A DNA stretch of 64,000 nucleotides from a virus (IMGVR_UViG_3300037247_001890:1-64000); one strand, 5' to 3'; counted from the first letter of the stretch, positions 4,579-27,100 are shown. The notes: generated by a model not told the origin, from the letters alone. Numbers and translations: made by a program.

Positions 4579-5180
4579 TATTCATTATATTCTATTGTAT
4601 TTACTAATTTATATCCTTTACTAATACAAAATTCTCTCAATTCTTTTATATATGGATTATGCCATACGTCATTCCAAGGCAGATTTTCTACAGACATAAC
4701 AGTTGGATCATATTTTTCAAAGTCTAATCCTTGCAATACTTTCAATTCTGAATATTCTACATCTATATCAAGTACGTCTATATGTTCTACCTCAGAATGA
4801 ATATCTGATAAAATTGTAGTTAGGGTATATGCTTTTACTTTTATTGGGGTTATTTCATAATTTATTCTGGATTGTGGATCCAAAACTTTAAATGCAGAAC
4901 CACCTAGTCCTCCCGCATAACCACAAACTTCAAAATCCACTTCACCTTCATCTTTATCCGAACAAGCATATTGTATAATTGGATATCCTTTAGCTCTAAA
5001 TGCATCACACATATTCGGCTGAGGCTCAATCGCTATTATCTTCCATCCCAAACTACGAAATTGAAAAGAATTTGAAAAACTCTCCGGATATCCGGCCCCA
5101 ACATCTACATAAACCCCTTTAAAATCACGAGGAAAGTGAGATGTCACAAATTTATAAAATACACCTTGTTGCTGTGGCAT
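4563..5180 (-). CDS. FkbM-family methyltransferase
   Basis: YVDVGA, IAIEP, IDVLDIDVEYSELKVLQG. Confidence 0.85.
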   Translation of the reverse strand: MPQQQGVFYKFVTSHFPRDFKGVYVDVGAGYPESFSNSFQFRSLGWKIIAIEPQPNMCDAFRAKGYPIIQYACSDKDEGEVDFEVCGYAGGLGGSAFKVLDPQSRINYEITPIKVKAYTLTTILSDIHSEVEHIDVLDIDVEYSELKVLQGLDFEKYDPTVMSVENLPWNDVWHNPYIKELREFCISKGYKLVNTIEYNEYWIKK

Positions 5181-9308: not shown

Positions 9309-10271
9309 TTATTTTTTTAGTAAGTTAATATCATTTTTAACCATCCGTTTAATAATTTCTGCAAATCTCACTTTTGGTTCCCAACCAAGTATTTTCTTAG
9401 CTTTGCTTGCATCTCCTCTTAGATGATCTACTTCAACAGGGCGTATGAATCTAGGATCCTCAATTATGTGATCTTGCCAACAATCTATACCGATGACCTC
9501 GAATGATTCTCTAACAAAATCCTCTACAGAATGTGATTCACCTGTCGCGAATATAAAATCCTCAGGGTTGTCCAACTGCAGCATTCCCCATATCCCCTCA
9601 ACAACATCCGGAGCATAAGACCAGTCACGACGAGGCTGTAAATTCCCAAGACGAATATTATCATCTAAATCCAAATGGATTTTTGCTACACCATTGGTTA
9701 TTTTTCTAGTTACAAATTGAATACCTCTACGTTCTGATTCATGATTAAATGAAATAGCACAACATGCAAACAGATCATATGATTCTCTATAATTCTGCAT
9801 AGTATGGTGTGCAAATATTTTTGCAACTGCGTATGGATTACGCGGATGAAACTGAGAATTCTCATTTGCAATATCGGTTTCCAGTTTACCAAACATTTCA
9901 CTTGAAGAAGCCTGAACTAGTTTTATTTTTGAATCAAACGTTCTAATTGCTTCTAATAGTCTTAGTACACCTAAGCCAGTTATATTTGCGGTATGCTCCG
10001 GCAATGTCCAGCTATCACCTACGAAGCTCTGAGCGGCAAAACTATAAACTTCATCAGGCTGAGAAATTTCTAGAGCCCTTTGAAGAGAATTAATGTCAGA
10101 TAAATCTCCTTTAATGAGTTCGATTTTGTCTACGATATGCTCTATATTCTTTCGATTGAGTTCGCTCCGGTGCCTCTCAAGCCCATACACTTCATAATTT
10201 TTTGACAAGAGTAAATCTGCCATATAAGACCCGTCTTGACCTAATATTCCTGTAATTAAAGCTCTTTTCAT
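9309..10271 (-). CDS. gmd: GDP-mannose 4,6-dehydratase
   Basis: ALITGILGQDGSY, QASSSEMFG, PYAVAK, FNHESERRG, FVTRKIT. Confidence 0.95.
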   Translation of the reverse strand: MKRALITGILGQDGSYMADLLLSKNYEVYGLERHRSELNRKNIEHIVDKIELIKGDLSDINSLQRALEISQPDEVYSFAAQSFVGDSWTLPEHTANITGLGVLRLLEAIRTFDSKIKLVQASSSEMFGKLETDIANENSQFHPRNPYAVAKIFAHHTMQNYRESYDLFACCAISFNHESERRGIQFVTRKITNGVAKIHLDLDDNIRLGNLQPRRDWSYAPDVVEGIWGMLQLDNPEDFIFATGESHSVEDFVRESFEVIGIDCWQDHIIEDPRFIRPVEVDHLRGDASKAKKILGWEPKVRFAEIIKRMVKNDINLLKK

Positions 10272-10296
10272 ATTTTTTTATTGGTTATAATTTGTT

Positions 10297-10932
10297 TTAC
10301 CATAATCCACCATTTATATCTATTGATGCACCCGTTACATAATCTGCTTCAATAAGAAATTTAATAGCTGTGGCTATATTCTCAATAGCTCCAAAAGTAT
10401 TCAAAGGTATTGAGATCTTAATTTTTTCTAACATATCATTATCAATTGTATCTTTCATTCCTGCATCCATGTATCCTAGTCTCAACGTATTAATTCTTAT
10501 ATTTTTTCTTGCATTCTCCATAGCCGCTACACGTACGAGAGTTTCTGTAAAAGCTTTCGTAGCGGAGTATATCCCTGTTCCCATAACTACATTCTTCGAT
10601 AACACTGATGACAGAAATATGATGTTGCCACGGTTATTGTTCCTCATTATGGGAATTGCTGCCTTCAGCAGATTTGCTGATCCTACAGCATTAATATGTA
10701 CTTGTTTTATCATCTCACCATAAGATATTTTATGTAAAAATCCATTTAAATTAATGCCTGCTGTATTAATAATTACATCTGGAATGCTCTCTGCTAAATA
10801 CGAAGACATCTGATGAGGACTATTTAAATTAAACACTTTAGATCCTACTGATTCCACTTCGTGTTCTTCGGACAACATTGGTACCAATTTGGTGCCAATA
10901 CCGCCTGTACCACCTACTACTAATATTTTCAT
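10297..10932 (-). CDS. short-chain dehydrogenase/reductase (FabG-like)
   Basis: GGTGGIG, YSATK, YVTGASIDINGG. Confidence 0.9.
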   Translation of the reverse strand: MKILVVGGTGGIGTKLVPMLSEEHEVESVGSKVFNLNSPHQMSSYLAESIPDVIINTAGINLNGFLHKISYGEMIKQVHINAVGSANLLKAAIPIMRNNNRGNIIFLSSVLSKNVVMGTGIYSATKAFTETLVRVAAMENARKNIRINTLRLGYMDAGMKDTIDNDMLEKIKISIPLNTFGAIENIATAIKFLIEADYVTGASIDINGGLW

Positions 10933-11543
10933 ATAGAATGCTCCAAAATTTTAAATTGCTCAACTGGACGAAAATTTCTTTTGAAACTTGGAAGATGTAT
11001 GTGAGAAGCGTTCAAATATTCTTCACTTGTATACTTCTTATTCTGCGATACTATAGCCTTCATACGCAAGGTTTTGTCTTTTTCAGTTTCTTTAATATCT
11101 ACAAACAAATTTGGATACCATGAACTCATGGTGCTTGGAGAACGATATTCTATAACGGATATCTTTCTGGCTCTTGCTAAAGCAAATCCTACCTTGTTTA
11201 TAATTAAGTGTTCTTGATGGGAATCAACAGATGTCGGAATAAAGACACCCTGGAAATCATCATCAAAAGTCTTTTCAATCACTGTAATCCACTCCCTAAT
11301 AGGTTGATCAGCAATATAAATCCCCAAGAGTCTTAAATCGACGTTACCAACACCTTTCCAGAAATTCTCACATTCCTTAAAACGGTTATGACTTGATGTA
11401 GGATTGCCTTTTGATCCTATGCTACACACTATGCTTGTAAATTGAGTACCTGAACAGCGTAGCATCGTTCCCGCCATAGATATTTCAATATCATCAGGAT
11501 GTGGTGACAAACATAATACTTTATTCATTTCTAAAAGCTTCAT
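10929..11543 (-). CDS. PIG-L/LmbE-family deacetylase
   Basis: SPHPDD and DSHQEH motifs. Confidence 0.85.
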   Translation of the reverse strand: MKLLEMNKVLCLSPHPDDIEISMAGTMLRCSGTQFTSIVCSIGSKGNPTSSHNRFKECENFWKGVGNVDLRLLGIYIADQPIREWITVIEKTFDDDFQGVFIPTSVDSHQEHLIINKVGFALARARKISVIEYRSPSTMSSWYPNLFVDIKETEKDKTLRMKAIVSQNKKYTSEEYLNASHIHLPSFKRNFRPVEQFKILEHSI

Positions 11544-11545
11544 AA

Positions 11546-12370
11546 TTAAAATCCCATGTCTGTATAAACACGAATTCCGTATCGTCGTAAATGGTCTCTA
11601 AATCTAATAGTGACCTCATCCTCTTCTCCAGAAAACTCACAAGTTAACAAATTAACTGTAAAATGATTGATTTCAACTACTGGAAATATGTAATCGAAGA
11701 AAGCCGGATAACTATTCTCTTCTGTAGCACGTTGTAAATATGTTTGTATAATATCTTCTGCTAAAACATGCTGTTCATCCTTGGTTGGTGGCACAATATT
11801 TCTTATGAATCGGGCTGGATTTCCTGCATATATCTTATTTGATTCCATTTTACAGCCCTTTGATACCACAGAGGCAGCTCCAATTACCACATTATCTGGT
11901 ATAGTTACTCCAGGAAGAAGCATAGCTCCTTGTCCAACAATAACATTATTTCCTAAAGAAACTGGTTTATATACTGTCGGATATCCCTCTAAACAAGAGC
12001 CCCAAAAACCATGTGTTATTATTTTTACATCAGGAGATAGGCCTACATCATCTCCCATATTCACAGGTCGTGCTGGATTTATATAATTATTATGCACAAC
12101 ACAGCGATCTCCGATTGTTACATTAGCATCTGTGAATTGACTTCCGCCCCCTCCAATCTTTAGGCCAGGAATACTGTGGAAAAAATGATCTCCTATTGTT
12201 AAATTCTCGACTGTTATCTCTACTCCATCTCCAAACCGGGCATTTTTACCAATTCTGCAATTCTTTCTTGCAATAATATGAACATCTTTCCCAACGGAAA
12301 AATTTTCTCCCAGTTCAATGTGCTCAGTCTCTATATAAGAGTTGTAAAGAATATTATAATATTGTCTCAT
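11546..12370 (-). CDS. hexapeptide-repeat acyltransferase
   Basis: Left-handed beta-helix repeats; LPGVTIPDNVVIGAASVV, YAGNPARFIR. Confidence 0.85.
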   Translation of the reverse strand: MRQYYNILYNSYIETEHIELGENFSVGKDVHIIARKNCRIGKNARFGDGVEITVENLTIGDHFFHSIPGLKIGGGGSQFTDANVTIGDRCVVHNNYINPARPVNMGDDVGLSPDVKIITHGFWGSCLEGYPTVYKPVSLGNNVIVGQGAMLLPGVTIPDNVVIGAASVVSKGCKMESNKIYAGNPARFIRNIVPPTKDEQHVLAEDIIQTYLQRATEENSYPAFFDYIFPVVEINHFTVNLLTCEFSGEEDEVTIRFRDHLRRYGIRVYTDMGF

Positions 12371-13083
12371 CCTTTTCTCCTATAGTATTCTTTTATCACG
12401 TCTGCCAACCAATATTTGAGACTAGATGGTGCAGTTGCGTTTTTGTGATAATGAGCAATCTCATCATCTATAATTATAGACAATTTAGTTGGATCTGCTG
12501 AAGGCTCCAGAACAAGATGAAAAGGCAAGTGTAGTCCCGTATATGGGCGTGTTCTCATATTCCCATTAACAGCAATAGGTACTCCTGGTTTATAAACCGC
12601 AAACGATGTAGCCACTGAATACTCCATATATTCACCTTCTGGCCCAACTTTGCCCCAAGTAACCATAAGTCCTTGTTCAGGATTATCTTTTGGGCATAAA
12701 CGCTCCACATGTGCATATGCATAATTTTCTTTAGGAACTCTAGATAGATCATAACTAAGTCCGCATTTAGGAAGTGTCGGCCATCGAACAAATCCTTCTA
12801 ATAAGGCTTCCGGCCAGTCATCCGGTACCATTGATAGATCATAATCTGAATCACTAAAAACAAAAGGTTCCTTTTCGTTTAGGCAGTGTTTCGCATAATT
12901 CACCCACGGTCCCTTATTTTCTAGTCGTCTGACTTCAAAAGGACAACTCGCATACCAATCTAAAAGCGGTTCCCATGTAGAAGCATTGTCCAAAAAGATG
13001 ACCTCATGCCCTTGATTAGACAAAACCTCCGCCATGGCGCTTGGCCAGGTTACATAGTCTCTATTATTTATAAATATTTTCAT
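12367..13083 (-). CDS. GT2-like glycosyltransferase
   Basis: IFINNRD, IFLDNAST, VFSDSD (DxD). Confidence 0.6.
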   Translation of the reverse strand: MKIFINNRDYVTWPSAMAEVLSNQGHEVIFLDNASTWEPLLDWYASCPFEVRRLENKGPWVNYAKHCLNEKEPFVFSDSDYDLSMVPDDWPEALLEGFVRWPTLPKCGLSYDLSRVPKENYAYAHVERLCPKDNPEQGLMVTWGKVGPEGEYMEYSVATSFAVYKPGVPIAVNGNMRTRPYTGLHLPFHLVLEPSADPTKLSIIIDDEIAHYHKNATAPSSLKYWLADVIKEYYRRKG

Positions 13084-13090
13084 AGTCTCC

Positions 13091-13762
13091 TTAAGGCCAC
13101 ACTATACAGCCTTGTATTGAATTTTTGTGCCACCTATGCACGTTGGTTACCTTATCAGTTGCCTTATACATTGGCCAATATTTATTTATTTTGTTCCACA
13201 TCACTGCGTCAGCTGCTCCCCTGTGTGCAATGTCAGTTTCCCAATAGCCTACTTTATCAATCACTTCACGCCTGTGTGCCACTTGATTTTGATCCAGTTG
13301 ACACGCTGCTTGCAGGACTACATCCCCAGGTTTCCTTATAAACTCTACCCACTCCACTCCGTTATCATCATTATACTTAGTCTGTCTTTGTGGCGCATAT
13401 GCTGCCATCCAGTCAAGATGTTCTTCGAAGGCTCTCATAATTTCCGATATGTGTCCCTGCAAATAATAATCATCATCTACTAAATAGAATATAACATCCC
13501 CGGTGGACAACTTGATACACTCGTTTATATTCTCCGCGTACTCTGTGCATTTAAGCCTGTCCTCATCTTTGCGATCGGATTGATAATAAATAATACCATG
13601 CTCTTTCTCATATTTTTCACACAAATCTCTAGTTTCTTTATCAGAGCCATCATCACCTACCAGTATTTCTTTATCTTCGTAATCTTGCATTAATGCGGAT
13701 TCAATAGACTGCTCTAGCAATTTAGGCCTGTTGTAACTAGTTATAATCACGCTTGCTTTCAT
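13091..13762 (-). CDS. GT2 glycosyltransferase
   Basis: SVIITSYNR, LVGDDGS, YLVDDD. Confidence 0.9.
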   Translation of the reverse strand: MKASVIITSYNRPKLLEQSIESALMQDYEDKEILVGDDGSDKETRDLCEKYEKEHGIIYYQSDRKDEDRLKCTEYAENINECIKLSTGDVIFYLVDDDYYLQGHISEIMRAFEEHLDWMAAYAPQRQTKYNDDNGVEWVEFIRKPGDVVLQAACQLDQNQVAHRREVIDKVGYWETDIAHRGAADAVMWNKINKYWPMYKATDKVTNVHRWHKNSIQGCIVWP

Positions 13763-13797: not shown

Positions 13798-14444
13798 GTA
13801 TAACTTAGGAGATTTATTATGAAAATAAACATCTTAAAAATGCAATTTGTTGATAGGAGAACATGCTTTATGGATTCCTTAGTAGACCAAATATTTGATG
13901 GCAAACGTACACATGTTATAATAAACTATAGAGGAATAATGCCCGCAGATTTGACGTATCTTACCAGCAGAATACGAGACAAAAAACTTAAGCACAAGCA
14001 TCGTCCAATCCCAGTCATAATAAGGAATAAGAAGAATGTTAATCAACTTTAGGAGGTCATCATGAATAATATATTATTTTTACTCAAGTATTATTTCAAA
14101 CGGATGCTGCGTAGTATCATAAAAACAGATTTGTATCATAATACTGAAACGGTATGCCGTACACTTCGCTTTTGTTGGCAAAGATTTATTGTCATATGGA
14201 TTTTAACAATTTTTAAGTATCCAAAATTCAAAGCACGTATGATTAGGAGACGCTGGGAAAGTTTGAATAACTACCAGGTGAAATTAGAAATCAAAGATAT
14301 GGAAAATCTTCGAAAATTATTGGCCTTGCATCCTGAACCAATGCCGGGAATGAATTTTTCGAGAAATTAAATAACCCCCTTAAACCTTCCTTAAACCCCT
14401 CGCAATTGCGCCTACCTTGAGTGAGTGTGTAGAAGTGAATAATG

Positions 14445-14472
14445 TACCCCGGGTTTACTCGGGGTATTTTTT
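14445..14472 (+). terminator. intrinsic terminator
   Basis: taccccggg-ttta-ctcggggta hairpin followed by a T run. Confidence 0.6.
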
Positions 14473-15164
14473 ATGAAAGGATTTAACTATGAACAAAATT
14501 TTAGGTTGGTTAACATGCCATATCTTGCAAAGTCACGACTTGACATGCAAAGCCAATGAAGGAATTAAGCCTGATCCACCATTAGGAGAAGGCATGGATT
14601 TAATTATGGCAGATTTTCATGAATATACTAAAATGTATTGTAAACGATGGAGATGCACATATGTCTATCATGACAGAATATGATAAGTTTAAACAATTCT
14701 TTAATAAATATGGCGTAGAATATGAGGCGGGAGAATGGTTTAAGTCTGACGATAAACAGTTGTCCAAAGAAAAACAGTTCATAGAAGTTCTCGGAATGAC
14801 ATTTGAATTCAGAGATGGAGTATTTTCACACCTTTATGAACCAGAATTTGACACAAAGATAGAAAGGTTACCTGATGGAAAATGATTTTGAAAAACTTTT
14901 AGAAATAGCTAAAAAAGCCGCTAATGAAGCGCGCAAAGAAGAAGGTTCCGAAGATGTTCTCCAAACTGCACGTCATGCCAGTCATATTCTAGATCTTTTA
15001 GAAAAAGAAGAGGAATTAGACATCATACTCGATTTTGATGAGTCTACACATGAACAGTTTGTGATATCCCGTGAAGCACAATATGCATGTGTGTCCGGTG
15101 GTGCTTTGAATCACCATTATTTATTCACCGAGGATTTTAAAGAATTTCAGGCTATTATAACGTC

Positions 15165-18100
15165 ATGAAAGTACACTTTATTGATTTATGGATATTAGAC
15201 ACACCAGAAAGTTTCATGAATTTAAACGCTGTAATACGTAGAAAAGAAGCCCTACTACTCACTGATTCTCTTCTATACACACTAATTTTAGTAAAAGATC
15301 CAAAGGTGGTCGCAGAATGAAAGTAGATTTCATAACACAACCTTTTTTGGTGCATGTAGGTGATATTGACCTATTTAAAGGTAAAGCATTACTAGAACCT
15401 TTTACAACGCTGCATCGTGGACAATCAATTTTGACCAATATAATAGCAATTAACAAAATCACAGCTCTTTGTAAGGAAGGCGGTGCATATGTGGTGGAAT
15501 TATGAAAGTTAAATTTATACATTATTATTTCTTATTAAATATCAATGATGTGCCTGCAATATTGGAAAAACTAACTCCTCCACCAATACCATTCACAATA
15601 TATAAATATGGGAAAAACTATATGGTATTGCATGCTATAAAAAAACGTCTTACGATAATATATCTAGACAATATTTTACATGTACCTCTCGTAGGTACAA
15701 AGTCAGGACAGGTGATAGTATAATGAAAGTAATATTCTTCGAACAACAGTATTTTTTGCTTGTTGCTAATGTTGTCCATGGTATTTCAAGTTTTCGATAT
15801 CTCAAAGTATTCTGTTCTAGGCCCGTACATGAAACGTCAATAGTAGCTGTGAGTAGAATTGTTGGTTATAATAACTGGTCTGATTCATACGAGGTTGGGA
15901 GATGAAGGTATATATCTTTAAACAACCATTCTTGATTTATGCAGGTGATCTGGTGCCATCTATATACAATGATAAAAAGCAAAGGAAGAATTTCAAGGAG
16001 TTGAATGGCAAAGACTGGGGTGCTTCTATAATAGCTGTGGGTAGAATTACACGCGCTGTGAATATAGTAGCACATATGGCACGACCACTAATGGAATATG
16101 GAGTAGAAAAATGAAAGTAAAATTGATTGATCTGCCTTATTTGTTAGATGCAAATAGTCTGTCTGAAAAATCTAAACAAAAGATGTATCCTGTTATATTA
16201 ATAAGTATGATGTCCCAAAAGCGTGCTCATGTGATGGTTAAAGGATACAGACTAGTAGCAAACAACAAATACGAGGTAACAACATGACAGTAAGATTCAC
16301 ATGCAATCAAATCATGGTACCATACATGCGAGTAAAAGTACAATATAGATATCTCTGCGATACATTATTTAATATTGGGGTTGGAAAAGGCCAAGAAATA
16401 TTTGTAATGATATCTCGTTACACACAAGCGGAGTACAATTAATTATGAAAAAAGTTCTTATAACAGCTTGTTGTATGTTTTGTCCAATAAATGAATTAAT
16501 CGAAAACCAAATGGCAGCATATAAACCATACCTTCTGTATGAATCTGATCACATAATTATAATAGCTGTAGAAAGGTTCACTCACAAACCATGAAAGTAA
16601 GATTCTTTGATGCTCAATTCATGATTTACGACGGTGAAGTAGACATGATAATAGATACCGGGCAAACAAGTTCAACAAATTATCTGCGTATACCTATGAA
16701 GAAAAATGTACTTGACGCCAATAATTGGCTTGATATAGCATTTATACATTCGCTACGCCGTAATAACCGAGGTAATTATGAGGTGAAAACATGAAAGTTC
16801 TATTTACTCCTGCACAGTACTTGTTATCTTTGGAGGATCTTCCTCCAGATTTCATTGATAAGAAGGTAACTGTTCTACGAAAAATAGGAAAACTTGCTAA
16901 AACAACTCAATACGGACTAGTTCTTATTAGTTTCCTGATGGAGTATCCATGCGAGTAAACTTTACAAATAATCAAATTTTAATACAATACTACAAAGTAA
17001 AACTTCATGAAAGGTGTAAAAATGTGGTATTCTTTAATGTAGGTGCTTTTGATGAAGATTTAGTATTTGTATTGATACATCAGTACACCAAGAAGGAGGC
17101 GAATGACCGATGAAAACTAAATTTATTGATTTTCATTTCCTCTTGGATCCGGATGATGTGTCTAGGGTAGAACATGAATATTTGCATCGTTATACTTTTG
17201 ACGATGGTATGAGATGTCGTATATTTCATATTGAATATCCAAAAGAAGACCTCTTGGAATATATAATATATGCTCCCCGAGCAGAAAGGAACTGTGACAG
17301 TTAAATTCTTTAGTCAACCTTTTTTGACATCCGAAAATGACATAGACTATTATGGATGTGATAATGGTGAATTTCTCCATTTAGAAAATTATGAATGGGA
17401 TAACTCTTTAAAACTCATGAAAGTCCCCATAATGTATGTGTTTATTAGTGGTTTTGAAAAATTTGGTAGTATGATTGGAGGCTTGCATGAAAGTTAAATT
17501 CTTTAATCAACCCTATCTGTTGTATGTATATGAAATTGAAAAAGTACACGGATCACGTGATGACTACCTGTTATTAATCTATGATACTCCGAAGACAATA
17601 GAAGAGATGGTAATGGTAGGCAAGATAAAAAAAGAAAATTATAACCTTATCACATATACGGAGGTATTCCTTGAAAGTTAAAATAATAACACAACCCTAT
17701 TTGTTGTTTGTAGGCAATATTAACAGCATATCAGGATCACTAGATGATTATCCTCTAGTGAAAGAAGCAACCGAGACACATAGATTTGATGACATAATGG
17801 TAGGAACAATATGGAATTTCAATGGTGAATGTAAGGTATACCCATGAAAGTTAATTTCCTTAAGCAATCTTTTTTGATGGGTGCATACTCAATAAATAGT
17901 CCATTGCAACAAATAACTTCTGGGAAGGTAAAAATGATCAATGATGGTGGACCCACACTGATACTAGTAGAAAAATTTAAAAAAAAACCAAGCGACAATC
18001 CATCACTAACTGAATATGAGGTAATATGAAAGTTAAATTCTTTAGTGAATCCTTCGTGTCGTACATTTTCCATCATGGATTTGTCGTCGCAGGAGGAAAC

Positions 18101-20532
18101 AAATACAAACTGTTGTATACTCCTAAAGGACACGAAGTATTTGGAAGAACTATAATAGCAATAGATAAGGTACCAAAATGCAAGTAAATTTCTTCAGCGA
18201 ACCCTATTTGTTGTATGTGAATTCAATTAACAGAGTTCATGGATTCTCGCAGGGCTATAGAACAATGAAGGAGCATACTAAAACTGGGTGGTGGCAAGTA
18301 GTATTTGTAGGTAAAATTAAAAGAATACCATACGGCCCTATAATAAAAATGGAGGTATTTCTTGAAAGTTAATTTCTTTAAACAATCTTTTTTGTTATAT
18401 GCGTTCTCAATATTAAAACCACAGATACACATAAAATCTGGGAAAGTAAAAATGGTTGGTATGAGTGGTATGAGTGGACCTACAATGGTACTAGCAGAAA
18501 AACTTAGAACAACACCAGAATATAATACAGCATTAAATGAATATGAGGTAATATGAAAGTTAATTTCTTTAGTGAACCCTATTTGTTGTATGAAGGCAGT
18601 TTAAAGACAAACGCACTCATCATAATGGAAACCTGCATAGGATTTGTGTATAGTGACAGACATAGTCTGTCATTCCCTGTATTCATCTATGATTGCCTGC
18701 ATGAATATGATAAGGATTGGATATGACAGTAAAATTCTTTGATCAACCCTATTTGTTGTATGCAAGCGAGATATCTTTTACTGGCAGACCTTACTACCTT
18801 CACATAGTAGAACGAAAGAAATGGGTATGGAAAAAAGCAATAGTAATACTAGGATGGAACCATTGATATGACAGTAAAATTCTTTGATCAACCCTATTTG
18901 TTGTATTATAATGAATACAGACTTGGAGGAGACATATTCAAAAATGACTTTTATGTAATACAACGTACCGTAGGATGGCCTAAATTTTCAAGTGAATCAG
19001 TGGTCATAATATATACAAGAATACAAACGGAGATGTTAAATGGAGGTAAATTTCTTTAAGGATCCCTATGTGTTGTTTGCAATAGACGCGAACACTAGTT
19101 ACAAATTAATAGGATTCGCCAGAGACAACTCGAACCATCCTGGAAATCATGCATTTATGAATCCGGTGGTTATACTATGCTAAAAGTTAACTTCTTTAGT
19201 AAACCCTACGTGTTGTTTGAAGGTGATGCGATTGGAAGAAGTGGTTACAAAGTAATAGGAGTTGCCAGAAATTCATCATATTCTAAATATCATCACCAAA
19301 TATATACGGTGGTTATATTATGCTAAAGGTTAGATTCTTCAGTGAACCACATGTGGTTCATTTATATGATTTTCCCAGCACAAAAATAATAAAAGCACAT
19401 ATCATATTTAAACCTACAAAACGCGGTCAAAATCCTAATCCTATAGTTATACTGGATACAATTAAACCGGAGGATAAGTAAATCGGAGATTCACTTATGA
19501 TGAAAGTTAAATATCACAAGAGAATGGTTAATATACACAACACATCGTACGTCGTAAATATTTACAACGTGCATCTGATAAAGCCACGCATATTTGCGTC
19601 AAAGACACATGTCATACACACTTCCCGCAAACCTTTGGGGAGTACTCAGGGAATCGACGATATCGTACTGGTAAATAACTCATGGAAAAAGTAAACATTA
19701 TAGAAGCAAATAGTCTGGTTAGGCAAGGAGAACCTATAGATGGGGAATATTGGTCACCTTATGATCCGGCACACGTAGTATGCCAAGATGGGGGTTTTCG
19801 ATATTTGCTCGTTGTATGGAGGTTCACATAATAATGGAAAAAGTAAATATCAGTAATTTAACATACATAGTACATTTAAAAAATATCGAGTCGGTAGAAT
19901 CTATACGAGAACTCGAAGAGCAAACACAAGTGTTTGCAACGCAAGGGCATATCATAGGGAAACACATTGCATTGGTAAATAACTCATGGAAAGAGTAAGA
20001 TTCACGAATCTCTGTTTCCTTTTCCCTATATCTGATCCAGATGTAAAATGGTCACTAGACTCAAATATAGAATATCATATAATTTATACTGGAGATATGT
20101 GTTATCAAGTAATTTTATTTACAAACGGTTTGGAGTACTTATAATGAAAGTTAGATTTATAGAAGTAAATGCTCTGGTTTCACGAGGAAACCCTATAGAT
20201 GAGACGTACGTCACATATGATTTCTTCCCTGTATACGTAGTATACAAAGACGAAGATTTCCAATATATACTCGTTTCACGCGGTTTTACATATAATGAAA
20301 GTTAAATTCTTTAATCAACCCTATTTGTTGTGTGTATATTGCATAAATGATGGAACTCATAAATTCGTCTTCGTAGATACCTTTTATGCGTTGTATGTAG
20401 ATGGTAGTTAGATTCCTCAGCAAACCCTTCCTGATGGAGATATTTTTCTATAGGGATGATGACGGAGTCATCATAATTAAAGGGGCTATCTTTGTAGATA
20501 AGCCCTCTGAATATGCAAAAGAATATACATAG
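15165..20532 (+). repeat. tandem array of about 32 overlapping 35-75 aa ORFs sharing a degenerate ~36-nt start repeat (ATGAAAGTTAAATTCTTTAATCAACCCTATTTGTTG; MKVKFFxQPYLL)
   Basis: Starts at e.g. 15165, 15317, 15502, 15723, 15902, 16111, 16284, 16591, 16791, 17110, 17294, 17487, 17844, 18026, 18178, 18362, 18553, 18723, 18868, 19040, 19177, 19320, 20143, 20295, 20401; mostly overlapping stop/start junctions. Confidence 0.9.
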
Positions 20533-21118
20533 CAAATTACAATGAATGAGTATATATATATATATTTATACTAATACTATAAAAATATATCTTTATAGAA
20601 CCCTGTGTAGGGAAAAAGTAGGGCTCAAACTACGTTTGAGTCCTTAAAAACTTGTTTTACATACTCTTACACCCAGGAAACCTCAAACCAATAAAAACAA
20701 TGACTTACGAGAAATACCTAAAAAAGGTCATATAATTTCAATTTAATATTATAATAATATATTAATACACCTCCATTATATAATTTGGAGTTAATAGTTG
20801 AATAATATAGTTTAGGGTATGCATAAATATACAAGATATTGCATAATTATGCATTATATTAGGAGGTGAGAATGAAAGTCAAAGTTATTATGGGGGACCA
20901 TGATGTAATTGTCCAAATGTCAAAGGGCGAATACTATGACATTAAACGCGCTCTTAGGCATTATAATAATGCCTACACACTCGATTTACTTAAAAAGTTA
21001 GAGAAGGAGGAGAAATGATAATAAACATATTCACAGAACCATACATAATAGATACACTCAAAGAAGAGGAGTGTCTTCCTCACTGTCTAAGACGAGACAT
21101 TGGTACCAATCCTAAAAA

Positions 21119-24100
21119 TTGGAACCTTATATTCATTTTTTCGAAAGAGAGGTTGAAATGAAACTAAAAGCTAAAGCTAATGAAGGTTGGGAAGACGGTA
21201 AATTGATAACAATACTACAAATAGAGGGGGATCCTCTAAACCTGGAAGGCTCGGGAGCCTTTGACTTGGACATCGTTGTCCAAATCACCAATGATCAAAT
21301 TCAAAAATCACTGGAGCCTGATACCAGAACCGATGCCGAGCGAAAACACGCACATGCAGCTAAACACAACATAAAGTGGGCTCTTCTTACATGTATGAAG
21401 GATCTGGCACCCTGTCTCGGTCCAGATTGTGTAACCTGGCTGGGGTTGACGTACGTCGACTGCCCGCATGTAAAGAGTTCTATTCCAAAACAAAAGGGGG
21501 CAATATGAAAAAATGGATTCAAACCTGGGCTAACTATTACAGCCATCTTACCCGTAATTTGTCCGCGGAGCAGACACACAAGCTATTGAGCGAGGAACGC
21601 GTTGCAAATGAGAACATCATAACCCGGGCGAAAGAGCGTATACAAGGCGTAGCCTTGTATTATGATCAAAGCCATTTGAGCGATCCAACCCCTCCGGGTA
21701 AAAAAGTAAGGGACACCAGTGCCCCTTCCAACGACATAAAAATGCACACCAGAGAAATCTCAGATCGGGAGATATAAATGAAAACAATACTTTCTAATCC
21801 TGTTAAACAAAGATTTAGTACATGGGAGAAGGCACTTAGAGCCGCAGAAATACATTATATGTCGTATGGCTGGTTTATGAGGGCATTTGGCGTTGTTATA
21901 ATTAGGCACTGGGTAGATCATAACTATTTCAGTGTAATAAACGCTAAGTCAACAGTTAGAGAAAGGCAGTTCTACTATGACTGATGGAGAATTGATTATG
22001 GACCACATATCTACGTACGTAGATAAGAAATTTGAATTAAACGAGCTTGAATTAAGGCCACCCAAGGATTTTCTTGATCCTGTTGTAATTCCATCTTATT
22101 TTATTGATCGAGCCATAGAAAAGAAGAAAGCAGCCTTAAGAAAAATTATTGAAGTTGAAAGAAACTTCATTGCAGGTTTCTTCGATGACATGCAAGAATA
22201 AGGGGGCGTACGCCTCCTTAGACGGCCGTGGTGAGACGATCGACATACGTCGATCTCAGAACACCCTCAATTCAACCAAGGAGGTCTCATGAAAGCACAA
22301 ATTACCAAAAAAGAATATCATACCGCTATAAGGGATTTAAGGGCGTCATATAAACATGGGGAATTATCAGAACGTACATTCAAAAAATTAGTCAAAACAG
22401 TGGCTTCCGTATATTATGGCCAAAAACTGGACAAAATACTAAAATGAAAAAATTTAAATATAAACGAAAATGCCCAAGATGTAGTCAAAGAAATGTCTTG
22501 AATACATTTGTTAAAAAAGGCAGCATTTACCTTGCCGGCCACCTAGACGGCAATACGAGTGGAATAAAGGCAAAAAGAAATTTGATGTATCGAAGCTGCA
22601 ATACTTGCGGCTATGGTTGGAGAGAGAAGGTTTAAAATGAGCGTACGTGTATGGACATTAGAATATGTGCCATTTGTTATGGGTGGATCGGTTTGGCAAC
22701 CAATATCGACGGACGTCGAGCACCATGGTGAATATGACCTGGGCAAGGGCTACAAAGGACATTTGATTTATGCGCCAAGTGGCAGGACGTACGTCGCGGA
22801 AAGCAGATCCGGCGCGTTCGTTGGACCTACGATAGCCGACGTGCGTCTTGACATCACAAACTGTGAGGACATAAGTCTAATGGAGAAGCAAGTAACAGAT
22901 GCTATTGAAAAATCTAAACAAGCAAGAAGAGTAAAAGCAAAAGAATTTTGGAGGTTATTAAAACAAAATGAAAATACTTAGATCTGGTTTAACCAAGAAA
23001 AGCCGCGTGTGCATGTGGCTGAGTGGCATTGGTGGTGCCATCGGTGGTGCCATTATACTATTCATGTTTATAAATGGGTATAATCGCACTCATGAAGGCA
23101 TATGGCTAATTACAGTTGGTGTGACGGCTTGCATTTTAGCTTATGACTATTCTACGAGAAAAAAATGAAAGAAAAATACCGTAAAATGTTAGAGGACGCT
23201 GAAGAAAAACAATTTAGTTATGGCAGTGCCTGGGTTGCACATCAAGAAGCTGTATGGAATGAAGTTCAACGATTGATAAAAGAGGATGAAGAAAATGAAC
23301 GATAAACCTTATACGATTACCGATAAACGTGGCATGAGTAAAGGGCAAGAACACCCTAAGGAAGTATGTCGCGTATGTGGGTCAAAAGAAGTCCATAGTA
23401 AAAAATACGGAAAACCTACTATGGATTGCATAACATATTTAAAGAATCAAGTCAGCGAATTACAAAAGTATGTTACAGTGGACGAAGCTTATCACGACGA
23501 GACTGGACCAATGTAATGAAGTTAATTGATTACCTGGCAAAACGCCAGCGACACAAAGAACTTCGTCAACAACTGAAAGATGTAAAATACGATATAGGCT
23601 TAAATTGTCAAGTGTATTCTGAAGCGTCGAATAAAAAAATGAAAGAAAGCTGTATTAGAGAATCTATTAAATTAAAAAAACAGCAGCTTTCTTTAGAAGA
23701 AGAACTCAGAGAAGTTTTTAAGGATCAAATTGGTGGGCCAGATTTGAACAGTGGACGCGGTGGACCAGATGACTAATGATTCTTTAATAAGCTTAACTAA
23801 AATGACATTGGCACAGCAGGAGACCATAGAGAAACTATCTCGCCGTTTCCCAATGCTGGACGGGCCTGATATCGACTGGATAACAGCTGAAAAGATCTAT
23901 AAAATATACAGCCAGCTACACGGTACCAGTCAAAGTTTGCAAAGAATAGCAGAAAGAGGCGGATTTGGGTGGGGAGAAGTAAAACTTATGACAGAAAAGG
24001 GTAAAAAATGAGTGATAGCATAGAACTTTTTGAGATCTTAGGAAAGGGAAAGATCTTTAGCATACGCCTATCGAAGCCTTTCTATGAATTATGGTATGTT

Positions 24101-27100
24101 GGGTCAGACAAGGAAAAAGATGTAAAGATTAGTCAATTTATTGGCCTTAATTATGTCAAAACTGAACATACAAACGGGATCCAAATGATAATTTGGGGCC
24201 TTAACATCATGTTTGCATGGGGGAAAGAACGAAATGGACGCAGTTGATAGAAAATATCTATTAGATAGGATAAAAGAACTCATTATAGAGCATGGTCGCG
24301 TTGCTAGGTGGGGATTGTACGTCATGGTTTCTGCTACACTGATTAAAACTTGTATCATGCAGAAAGATATACATCACATTGAACATCAACTCGACAGGAT
24401 AGAAAATCAACTACAACAGGAGGAGACAAAATGAAAATTCATATATCAACTCTTGCGTTATTCTTCTGGGGTTTTATAATACTATTTGCAGGATTAAGTA
24501 ATGATTTTCTTATGACATGTCTTGCTATGGTTGGACTTTGTTTTGCATTGTATTGGCATATCTGGCATTTAAAATCGGAAAAAGAATTTGAAGAGGACCC
24601 TATAGATGTAATGCAGACGTACTATCTGAGGGACGGAACCAAAATACGAGCAGTGCCTGAGAAAGATTTTCATATAATTAGCAAAAGCTTATTTGCCACA
24701 CTTGAACAAGTCGAGAAACTGCAGAAAGAAAAAGCAAGTTCAATAGCCAAGTGGTTCAAAAAAGGCCAGAATTCCGCAAAACGGAAAAACAAAAGCGGAT
24801 GCTGCTGTATTATAAACGACGACGATGAAATTGTAAGTATGTGTGGTGCACATGAAGACCATGTAGAAGAATTAAAAAGTCTAATGCGTGAAGTTTCATC
24901 GGCTGACTGGTTTATCCGATACAACGATGAATTCAACGAACGTTGGAAGAAAGCGTTAGAAAGTTAGTAGGGAGATTAGATGGAAAAACCAACAGAAGGC
25001 TGGAAATGGCTAATGAATGCTGAAAAGTGGCATTATTTCGTTGATAATAAGTCACTGTGTAGTAGATGGGGCACATTCAGTATGAATGCTCTTGAGAAAG
25101 GAATGGACGACTCACCTGATAATTGCAAAATGTGCAGAAGGAAACTTAAATCAAGACAGGCGAAAGGAGAAGTATCATGAGTAACAAAAGAGAAGTGAAA
25201 GTAGCAGTTAAAAAACATGGACGTAATTGGATTAATCATGAACGACCGCCCTATTGTCCGGAGTGCGAAGGAAAGAACATTAAACATTCCATCAGCATGA
25301 TTTATTCAGGAAAAGAAAGGAAATACGCTGCAGAGTGTTTATGCTTAGACTGCGGATGTGAATTTACGCTTGTGCGTATTGAGGAGGAGGAAGATGAAAC
25401 TGACAACTGAGCAGAAGACAGAATTGAGAAAAATTTATGGCCTTACACATAGAGGCATGGCCCATAAGTGGAGATTTACATCAACGGGCCATCCGTGGTT
25501 TGACTCAACACAGCCCTACTTCAGGCACTTTGAACGTAGATTTAAGAAATTGGGTGGAATGACTCCTGAAATAAGCAAATCTATAGGATGGGAGTGAACA
25601 TGAAGCTTAAAAAATTAAAAAAGAAACTTGAGGAAATGTCCCAAGAAGCATGGGACAAAATGGGCTATCCAGGTACGCCGGGCTGGGAAAAACGTGCTAC
25701 AGACGATGAGAAACACCATTGTGGCAGATATCGTGCTTTAGAGGATGTGTTAGATCTTTTAGAGAAAAAGTAAATAAATAAAGGAGGTATTATGTATTTT
25801 TCAATAACAGTGGCAGTATGGGTAATAATCACTACCATACTAACCGTAACACTGATAAGACGAAGCAAGTGGAAACTCTACAATCCCGACTGGGCTGAAA
25901 TAGCAGCGAATAAACATGTTGAAGAAAAACGTCTTAAACGTGACAGACGCAAGAAATTTGATATGGAAATTCATCCGGATAGACGAAAAACATACAGATC
26001 AAAAGTTTAGGGGAACTTATGTTTAATGAAAAAGATGATAAACAGCGAATCAAGAGGATTACTACCATCGAAGGTACTACTGATGATCAGTTTTTAAAAG
26101 AATGCTACGGGCTTGGTGCTTTGGCAGCTAGTCTTGCAGAAATGGAAGAAGCAATCAGTGGTTGTAAATGCGAGGGTGTTGATCTCTCAGATATGAAAAG
26201 GCAATTTCCTGCGGATTACAAAAGGATGATTAAATCTATGAAAAGAGGGGAACTGGATAAAGTTTATGATGAAGTTAAAGCTTATCTGGTAGCATATAAA
26301 ACTGCACACTTGTTAGTTCTGGACGGAGACGATGATGATAGATTGGCATCTGTTTTGAACGGTCCTCTATGTGGGGTTCCTTCCGAAGAAAAGTTATTAC
26401 ACTGATTACAAGGCGACATGTGTCGCCTTTTTATCTTAAAATGGAATAAGATAAGTGTAGAACATTTAACCTTTAGGAGGAATATTATGTTTAATAAATC
26501 ATTGAAATACTCAATCATCATTTTATGTATTGCATTACTCAGTTGTAAACCGGTAGACATAACTAGTCCCATGCCAATGATGCGAACATTGAATGTGACG
26601 TACTATGCCAGCGATGAATTTTATTTTGGATCAACCGGGATTCAGACAGCCATTCCAATGCTAAGGGAAAAGGGCGTCAAGGATGGTGATCTCATTAATA
26701 TTGCTGAAACATCTTTCTTTATTGAAAGACAAGGAATTGACATGAACGATGCTTACATAATCCGTGTAGGTGGGGACTCTGATAGAAATTATATTTTCAG
26801 CGACATAATCGAGATCAAAGAAGATGATATTATTACGTCGTCTACTTATGAGAAGCAAAACATATCCTGCCATGATCCGGTATGGGTTGTTGAATCTCTA
26901 CACCCAGTAAAAATAACAGTGGAGATGAAGATTTACATCGTTAGTAATTAGGTCATAAGACGCAGACTAGTCTGCGTCTTTTTTAGATAAGGATTATGAA
27001 AATGAACCAACTTAAAAAAACTCAAATAATTTTAACCGAGAAGGATTATTCTATAATGGAGAAAGAAATAAGTAGAACAACGGACGCTCTGAAAGAACGT

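Follow-up and report, generated by a model that had tools for sequence, protein, structure and literature searches.

The sequence examined, hereafter the window, is a 64,000-nt stretch that forms the first 64 kb of a 169,274-bp virus record in IMG/VR (IMGVR_UViG_3300037247_001890; estimated completeness 85%). Between positions 15165 and 20532 the window contains 32 consecutive plus-strand open reading frames (ORFs), each encoding a small protein of 38–73 amino acids (aa), which are so tightly packed that the coding density exceeds 100%. This confirms an earlier description made from the DNA alone (the sequence-only reading), according to which the region is an array of about 32 microproteins with a conserved start. 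The majority of the units begin with M-K-V-K/N-F-F-x-Q-P-Y-L-L, and successive units are spaced 106–230 nt apart. In 27 of the 32 units the start overlaps the stop codon before it (as ATGA in 13 cases), and a Shine-Dalgarno (SD)-like site is present 4–18 nt upstream in 26 units; the SD-like word is often GAGGT, placed within the C-terminal Y-E-V codons of the preceding unit.

The individual units are listed below. The scores of orthologs and paralogs are those of alignments restricted to the bodies (the parts following the conserved start), and the lineages compared were chiefly those represented by metagenomic contigs L020 and L025 (the latter belonging to lineage B).

15165-20532, plus strand: whole array, one small-protein family in 32 tandem units, all matched by the family profile
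15165-15320, plus: unit 1, 51 aa; ortholog L025:2708 (lineage B, score 69), absent from L020 and L015
15317-15505, plus: unit 2, 62 aa; orthologs L020:3952 (score 101) and L015:307
15502-15723, plus: unit 3, 73 aa; ortholog L025:2315 (score 60), absent from L020 and L015
15723-15905, plus: unit 4, 60 aa; ortholog L020:4131 (score 168)
15902-16114, plus: unit 5, 70 aa; orthologs L020:4483 (score 203) and L015:819
16111-16287, plus: unit 6, 58 aa; orthologs L020:4692 and L025:3051
16284-16442, plus: unit 7, 52 aa; paralog of unit 11 (body score 57 versus 16949)
16445-16594, plus: unit 8, 49 aa, variant type with P-Y-L-L-Y in mid-protein; orthologs L020:5026 and L025:3859
16591-16794, plus: unit 9, 67 aa; ortholog L025:2118 (score 137), the first unit in lineage B
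16791-16958, plus: unit 10, 55 aa; no ortholog detected in L020 or L025
16949-17113, plus: unit 11, 54 aa; ortholog L025:3221 (score 67), paralog of unit 7
17110-17304, plus: unit 12, 64 aa; profile match, no ortholog in L020 or L025
17294-17497, plus: unit 13, 67 aa, GTG start; ortholog L025:3561 (score 81), in a different place in L016
17487-17681, plus: unit 14, 64 aa, canonical start, the protein modelled; ortholog L020:5342 (score 151)
17671-17847, plus: unit 15, 58 aa, TTG start; profile match, absent from L016
17844-18029, plus: unit 16, 61 aa; paralog of unit 19 (body score 106 versus 18362), ortholog L020:5527
18026-18187, plus: unit 17, 53 aa; profile match, relatives P0016, P0027 and P0034 in other metagenomes
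18178-18372, plus: unit 18, 64 aa; paralog of unit 14 (body score 75 versus 17487)
18362-18556, plus: unit 19, 64 aa, TTG start; within a block duplication, 17845-18063 matching 18363-18590 (families D5 and D7)
18553-18726, plus: unit 20, 57 aa; ortholog L025:4713 (score 121)
18723-18866, plus: unit 21, 47 aa; missing from the otherwise identical contig L018
18720-18761, plus: 42-nt identical repeat, copy 1, junction of a one-unit indel (comparison with L018)
18865-18906, plus: 42-nt identical repeat, copy 2 (comparison with L018)
18868-19059, plus: unit 22, 63 aa; relative P0019 in another metagenome
19040-19183, plus: unit 23, 47 aa; paralog of unit 24 (body score 56)
19177-19326, plus: unit 24, 49 aa; 88% DNA match in L016
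19320-19481, plus: unit 25, 53 aa; profile match, 76% DNA match in L017 over 19329-19515
19497-19694, plus: unit 26, 65 aa, divergent start; ortholog L020:6073, paralog of unit 28
19682-19831, plus: unit 27, 49 aa; paralog of unit 30 (body score 64 versus 20144)
19834-19998, plus: unit 28, 54 aa; ortholog L020:6940 (score 109)
19986-20144, plus: unit 29, 52 aa; profile match
20144-20305, plus: unit 30, 53 aa; profile match
20295-20411, plus: unit 31, 38 aa, perfect canonical start; profile match
20401-20532, plus: unit 32, 43 aa, last unit; profile match

In the variant unit 8 (16445-16594), P-Y-L-L-Y occupies residues 27–31, after a Cys-rich extension of 25 residues, and this layout is kept in L020 and L025.

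The similarity between units is concentrated at their starts. Searching the 64-kb window for an 18-nt word from this segment (≤3 mismatches) gave 20 occurrences, of which 18 lie in the array, compared to 1.64 expected by chance; a 36-nt start word occurs five times (0 expected). Among non-orthologous units, mean DNA identity is at background (0.28) before the ATG, rises to 0.62–0.77 over nucleotides 0–17, falls to 0.45–0.57 over nucleotides 18–35 and is back at background from about position +45. The sequence-only reading had also pointed to 42 identical nucleotides shared by units 18723 and 18868, to only two differences in 44 nt between the starts of units 17487 and 20295, and to six paralog pairs. 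The first were found at 18720-18761 and 18865-18906, the second count was exact, and all six pairs scored above the 99.9% shuffle level in body-only alignments. Block duplications are visible as well: 17487-18063 matches 18178-18590, and 19500-19694 matches 19837-19998 together with its neighbours. These blocks begin and end in start repeats.

Comparison with related metagenomic contigs revealed three lineages that share the flanks of the array, namely a GT2 glycosyltransferase gene, hexapeptide genes and a 97-aa gene upstream, and a conserved spacer downstream. Between these flanks the number of units varies: 32 in the window, 21 in L020, 21 in L025 and 20 in L022. Nine orthologs are collinear between the window and L020, as judged by body-only alignments. 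L025 contains seven to nine orthologs, but their order is permuted: it begins with the counterparts of units 16591, 15502 and 15165. The shuffling of units that had been inferred from the DNA is supported by these differences in unit number and order. For many units neither L020 nor L025 offers an ortholog, although relatives exist in other metagenomic contigs, and in the short contigs L015 and L016 units are missing, extra and displaced. The three lineages retain the starts, SD sites and reading frames.

Unit turnover was also observed between nearly identical strains. Contig L018, from another sample, is 100% identical to window positions 16626-18761 joined to 18865-19215 (2.1 kb and 351 bp, respectively), and therefore differs by the precise absence of unit 18723 (145 bp), the two parts being joined within the 42-nt identical repeat. 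Contigs L022, L023, L024, L025 and L026 were assembled independently and represent a single near-clonal phage. Over about 5 kb, L022 and L025 are free of mismatches except in three places. (i) L025 contains one extra unit of 158 bp, absent from L022 and L024, which is joined at ATGAAAGTWAA, and the next unit carries 14 substitutions. (ii) A single unit differs between L022 and L025 by 29 substitutions and a 3-nt indel. (iii) One unit is out of frame in L022 and L024 compared with L025, owing to a 17-nt indel (L022 about 5043-5126; L025:5423-5617). The proposal that the repeat acts as a recombination handle is supported by the L018 junction and by the 158-bp unit of L025, both of which place the gain or loss of whole units at the start repeat. 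In the divergent unit of exception (ii), the proportion of synonymous sites that differ (pS) is 0.48 and that of nonsynonymous sites (pN) is 0.12, with a ratio of nonsynonymous to synonymous substitution rates (dN/dS) of about 0.2. These values indicate an allele imported from a diverged relative rather than hypermutation; an origin by a diversity-generating retroelement (DGR) or local hypermutation was rejected on the basis of pS and pN and of the absence of a template copy in the genome. The 17-nt indel amounts to a naturally occurring single-unit knockout between strains that are otherwise identical.

Selection on the units was examined in 12 ortholog pairs, with the N-terminus taken as the first 13 codons and the 97-aa gene as the flank. 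Synonymous divergence was similar throughout (pS of 0.53 in the start, 0.49 in the body and 0.51 in the flanking gene), which indicates that the start is conserved mainly at the protein level. At a dS between lineages of about 0.8–0.9, dN/dS was 0.27 for the start, 0.42 for the body and 0.17 for the flank, so that both repeat and body are under purifying selection. In four of the six paralog pairs, pN was 0.13–0.19 in the N-terminus compared to 0.29–0.41 in the body. The dN/dS of the orthologs and the pN pattern of the paralogs show that the genes are real and constrained. In recent duplicates, body pN is about equal to pS; bodies thus evolve fast after duplication, and recent duplicates almost neutrally. 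Two of the earlier claims have to be narrowed in the light of these values. Conservation of the repeat at the DNA level holds insofar as rare codons are kept at four positions, but the pS of the start (0.53) is no lower than that of body and flank. Similarly, the bodies, described as hypervariable, are not hypermutating, and retained orthologs diverge like the flanking genes.

A family profile was built from 24 units and searched against 1.84 billion representative proteins. Word-indexed protein searches gave few matches, and the exhaustive profile search was the productive one: it returned 36 proteins at E ≤0.001, about one third of them the window's own units and the remainder from metagenomes. 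All matches but one are 47–70 aa long and match the whole profile (positions 1–54 of 54); the exception, P0011 (1611 aa), was rejected as a spurious match to a repetitive transposase. Within the 169-kb genome the profile matches exactly the 32 ORFs of the array, all within 15141-20529, and none elsewhere. A stray ORF at 21015-21161, about 480 nt past the array, starts with M-I-I-N-I-F-T-E-P-Y-I-I; this 33rd start-like ORF did not reach E 0.01 with the family profile. No match for the family was found in PHROGs, Pfam, PDB (by sequence) or cultured phages, a near-identity search of the array against GenBank phages gave no match, and neither a degenerate start-repeat pattern nor two flanking proteins retrieved relatives from IMG/VR contigs. 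A scan of one metagenome yielded a single confirmed locus, confirmation there having relied on one unit. None of the protein language-model neighbours bears a name. The family is confined to metagenomic contigs of one phage clade, with a few dozen relatives.

The protein encoded by unit 17487 was modelled with AlphaFold from a family alignment of 78 sequences. The model is small and beta-rich, with five main strands, and has a predicted local distance difference test score (pLDDT) of 92.4; the first ten residues (pLDDT 87) lie within it. After the motif, the family alignment has a hydrophobic region containing a [GNS]-[DES]-[ILV] turn, then a middle strand and a V-x-V-G-K-I-type hydrophobic strand; the proteins often end in Y-E-V. 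The N-terminal motif is probably part of the folded core: the confident model takes in the N-terminus, and nothing there marks the start as a detachable leader. Fold searches with this model gave no match of note in Foldseek (PDB and BFVD, E >0.6), VIA-align (best Z 2.1) or the Atlas (template modelling score, TM, <0.5). Fragments of ADP-ribosyltransferases among the weak rows had TM ≤0.47 and were not trusted. The family appears to be previously undescribed, and a missing library match is no proof of a new fold.

The explanation that we consider moderately probable is that the array is a rapidly turning over tandem multigene family of at least 32 genes, each translated separately, the conserved 5′ ends of which are substrates for unequal recombination. 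The requirement of the protein for its N-terminal motif would keep about 40 nt similar between units. Since this is the only stretch that units have in common, it would act as the recombination substrate, allowing misaligned (unequal) homologous recombination that duplicates, deletes and reorders whole units. Homologous recombination between co-infecting related phages would, in addition, swap alleles of single units. Even strains that are otherwise identical would then differ in their repertoires, and the copies that are kept would remain under purifying selection. In phage T4, homologous recombination works on microhomologies of 6–10 bp and amplifies a counter-defence gene (PMC9391042). A role of the units in host takeover or counter-defence is suggested by their position among small genes beside a divergent control region, by their high copy number and by their being the site of strain differences; the diversity of host targets would then drive unit turnover.

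Several observations weigh against this explanation. In L018, the 42-nt repeat may have been collapsed during assembly, which would mimic a deletion. A body-only profile built from the two other lineages placed 10 of the 32 window bodies above the 99% shuffle level, and the AlphaFold model of a second unit type (18553-type) was uninformative (pLDDT 59). In view of this weak body-only signal and the poorly folded second type, a fold common to all units is, from these predictions, at most likely. Further, the codons of the start are unusual for this genome. F5 is encoded by TTC in 18 of 24 cases (24% genome-wide), P9 by CCC in 10 of 16 (9% genome-wide), and L11 and L12 by TTG (19% genome-wide). 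The same rare codons at F5, P9, L11 and L12 are kept in L020, and FF, LL and PY codon pairs elsewhere in the genome do not have this pattern, although the p-values for the start codons overstate the effect, the units being related to one another. Selection at the protein level alone does not explain these codons. It is possible that repeated crossover within the repeat spreads one ancestral sequence, or that there is a constraint at the codon or nucleic acid level. Avoidance of T-runs as a cause of TTC-TTT was rejected, as TTT-TTT is the commonest FF pair genome-wide. Ongoing intragenomic gene conversion was not supported either, since the identity of starts within the window equals that between lineages.

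In a different view of the repeat, it is kept for a nucleic-acid reason (efficient re-initiation along a translationally coupled chain, the site of a translational regulator or a promoter for an RNA polymerase of the phage itself) and the peptide is partly a by-product. TTC, CCC and TTG-TTG are retained in two lineages in which orthologous genes are only 72–79% identical at the DNA level, and both the 27 starts overlapping an upstream stop and the SD words in the preceding Y-E-V codons would be compatible with such a role. We nevertheless regard this as unlikely, because the pooled synonymous divergence of the first 13 codons equals that of bodies and flanks, amino-acid change is about twofold more constrained in the start than in the body in most paralog pairs, and junction RNA revealed neither excess structure on folding (mean z 0.02) nor a match in Rfam. 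Alternatively, the constant N-terminus may be an address tag comparable to the capsid-targeting sequence of T4 internal proteins, by which a variable set of small effectors would reach a single destination (the prohead, for injection, or some other shared partner); the encoded proteins would then form an injected counter-defence repertoire. In form the units agree with this, since a short constant peptide precedes a very diverse remainder and the repertoire varies between strains, but the units have only 38–73 aa, their N-terminus has a high pLDDT within a confident model, and the array is situated among small genes, far from the structural block. The prohead protease cuts leaders at a Glu-ending L/I-x-E site. 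By inspection, no conserved Glu-ending motif of this kind follows the start motif, positions 14–17 being loosely [GNS]-[DES]-[ILV] (the cleavage rule is that of T4 and may differ here), and we consider an address tag improbable. A similarly low probability is assigned to the broader proposal that the shared 12-residue N-terminus is an address or docking strand to the prohead or to one host hub, its DNA doubling as a recombination handle; if it were true, the phage would possess strain-specific mini-effectors by the dozen, a natural plug-and-play effector library traded by phage populations.

That the array is largely junk, a repeat amplified selfishly or in decay with ORFs that have ceased to matter, could be argued from the recent duplicates with pN about equal to pS, the unit frameshifted by the 17-nt indel and the very short length of several units (38–47 aa). 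The dN/dS of 0.42 in orthologs at a dS of about 0.8–0.9, the value of about 0.2 for the swapped allele and the preservation of starts, SD sites and frames in three lineages make this quite improbable. Least credible of all is a system dedicated to diversification, be it a "translated repeat-spacer system" (the term of the sequence-only reading) or a cassette system, in which a recombinase of its own would capture, excise or shuffle units. Whole-unit indels, the unit swap and the permuted order among relatives would be in its favour. However, searches of the 169-kb record detected no tyrosine (PF00589) or serine recombinases or resolvases, while the control genomes all gave PF00589 matches; as the record is 85% complete, this absence is not absolute. 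Inverted repeats of at least 14 nt within 150 nt were represented by a single case inside a unit (16138/16247), with none recurrent at unit boundaries, and the array had no template copy. With neither an integrase or resolvase nor attC-like repeats nor a template in evidence, a cassette system with machinery of its own is not supported. The swapped unit (pS 0.48, pN 0.12) is as expected of a relative's allele, and general homologous recombination, acting on as little as 6–10 bp in T4 (PMC9391042), can account for every event.

The source of the record is an uncultured large myovirus-like phage. It contains 27 tRNA genes at 37.7–57 kb and encodes a baseplate wedge protein, a primase, a ribonucleotide reductase and a family A DNA polymerase. 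The polymerase has only 28.5% identity to its closest relative in cultured phages, and most structural proteins have no Pfam match, which marks the phage as very divergent. A minus-strand sugar-modification cluster (window 9309-13762) lies upstream of the array and encodes a nucleotide-sugar epimerase, a short-chain dehydrogenase/reductase (SDR), a PIG-L-type deacetylase, a hexapeptide acyltransferase and a GT2 glycosyltransferase. It is kept beside the array in all three lineages and may have a role in the modification of DNA or surface glycans. A Pfam and PHROGs scan of the genes flanking the array identified sugar-modification enzymes and unknowns, with no search aimed at cas genes being made. 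The direction of transcription switches near 13.8–14.4 kb, three small plus-strand genes precede the array, and the array itself forms the head of a rightward block of small genes. At the switch, a promoter-like site (TTGATG-16-TATAAT, with an upstream TG) is present at 13895-13922, and a strong hairpin followed by a T-run at 14444-14467, about 520 nt past it and just ahead of the first small plus-strand genes. The segment 13895-14467 is 72% conserved in L020 and may be a leader or small RNA.

The array is bounded by the following features:

14875-15168, plus strand: 97-aa gene, upstream boundary; its stop overlaps the start of unit 1
20518-20853, no strand assigned: conserved non-coding region, downstream boundary; 78% identical to L020:7487-7822, partly inverted in L022

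Orthologs of the 97-aa gene stand directly before the array in L020 (78% DNA identity; dN/dS 0.17) and L015, and a 99-aa gene takes this place in L022–L026. The downstream non-coding region contains a hairpin at 20620-20644 and TGCATAATTATGCA-type palindromes. Its AT-rich segment (20728-20854), in which such palindromes occur, matches L022:5365-5490 on the minus strand (78%) but is co-linear in L020, and might serve as a control region that is invertible or acts in both directions. The small genes that follow (20866-24700) are mostly absent or replaced in lineage B (L022:5500-7600), the only shared patches being 22304-22444 and 24713-25773. It follows that the whole early block is hyperplastic, and not the array alone.

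Otherwise identical multi-kilobase stretches of wild phage strains were found to differ only in units of the array, a pattern typical of genes engaged in an arms race with the host. The family members are small enough to be synthesised and screened, and they carry a natural conserved handle. Should they inhibit host defence or other host functions, the array would constitute a compact inhibitor library and a clear natural example of phages building and trading inhibitors.

Among known systems, the closest analogue in form is the T4-type internal proteins (IPI, IPII and IPIII), diverse small proteins with a common capsid-targeting leader, of which those with known function counter host defence (PMC3012670; PMC9391042). 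Both combine a conserved N-terminal peptide with diverse small proteins, and in both the repertoire differs among related phages. The internal proteins are, however, larger and encoded by few genes, whereas the array contains 32 tandem copies without sequence similarity to them, in which the N-terminus is modelled confidently with the rest; membership of that group is not claimed. In the accordion amplification of T4, copies of the counter-defence dmd-tifA genes are gained and lost via short homologies (PMC9391042). The array resembles this process, as well as the multigene families of large DNA viruses, in that tandem copies are made and lost by recombination and copy number is strain-variable. 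Accordion copies derive from one gene and are recent and identical. The array copies, by contrast, are old and have diverged strongly, and for most of them orthologs exist in relatives; recombination here acts on a conserved coding motif.

Integron cassette arrays likewise string small, variable genes together in one direction and vary in content among close relatives, but they rely on an IntI-type integrase and attC sites. Neither was found for the phage array; its repeat is translated and located at the 5′ end of each gene, and all its units belong to one protein family. Clustered regularly interspaced short palindromic repeat (CRISPR) arrays have non-coding repeats of fixed length and spacers of near-constant size, in contrast to the translated 5′ repeat and the 106–230 nt spacing found here. 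A DGR contains a template repeat that matches its variable region, whereas the array DNA has no match in the rest of the genome at E ≤0.01. The hyperplastic early regions of T4-like phages also consist of many small, functionally uncharacterised genes poorly conserved among relatives, but they usually hold unrelated ORFans, and a tandem array of 32 members of a single family is unusual. To our knowledge, dozens of tandem copies of one gene family are rare in phage genomes. The array described here has the properties of a birth-and-death family, i.e. homologous units, a copy number that varies between conserved flanks, junctions within a shared segment and purifying selection; the family appears to be new, and its organisation in 32 tandem copies is unusual for a phage.

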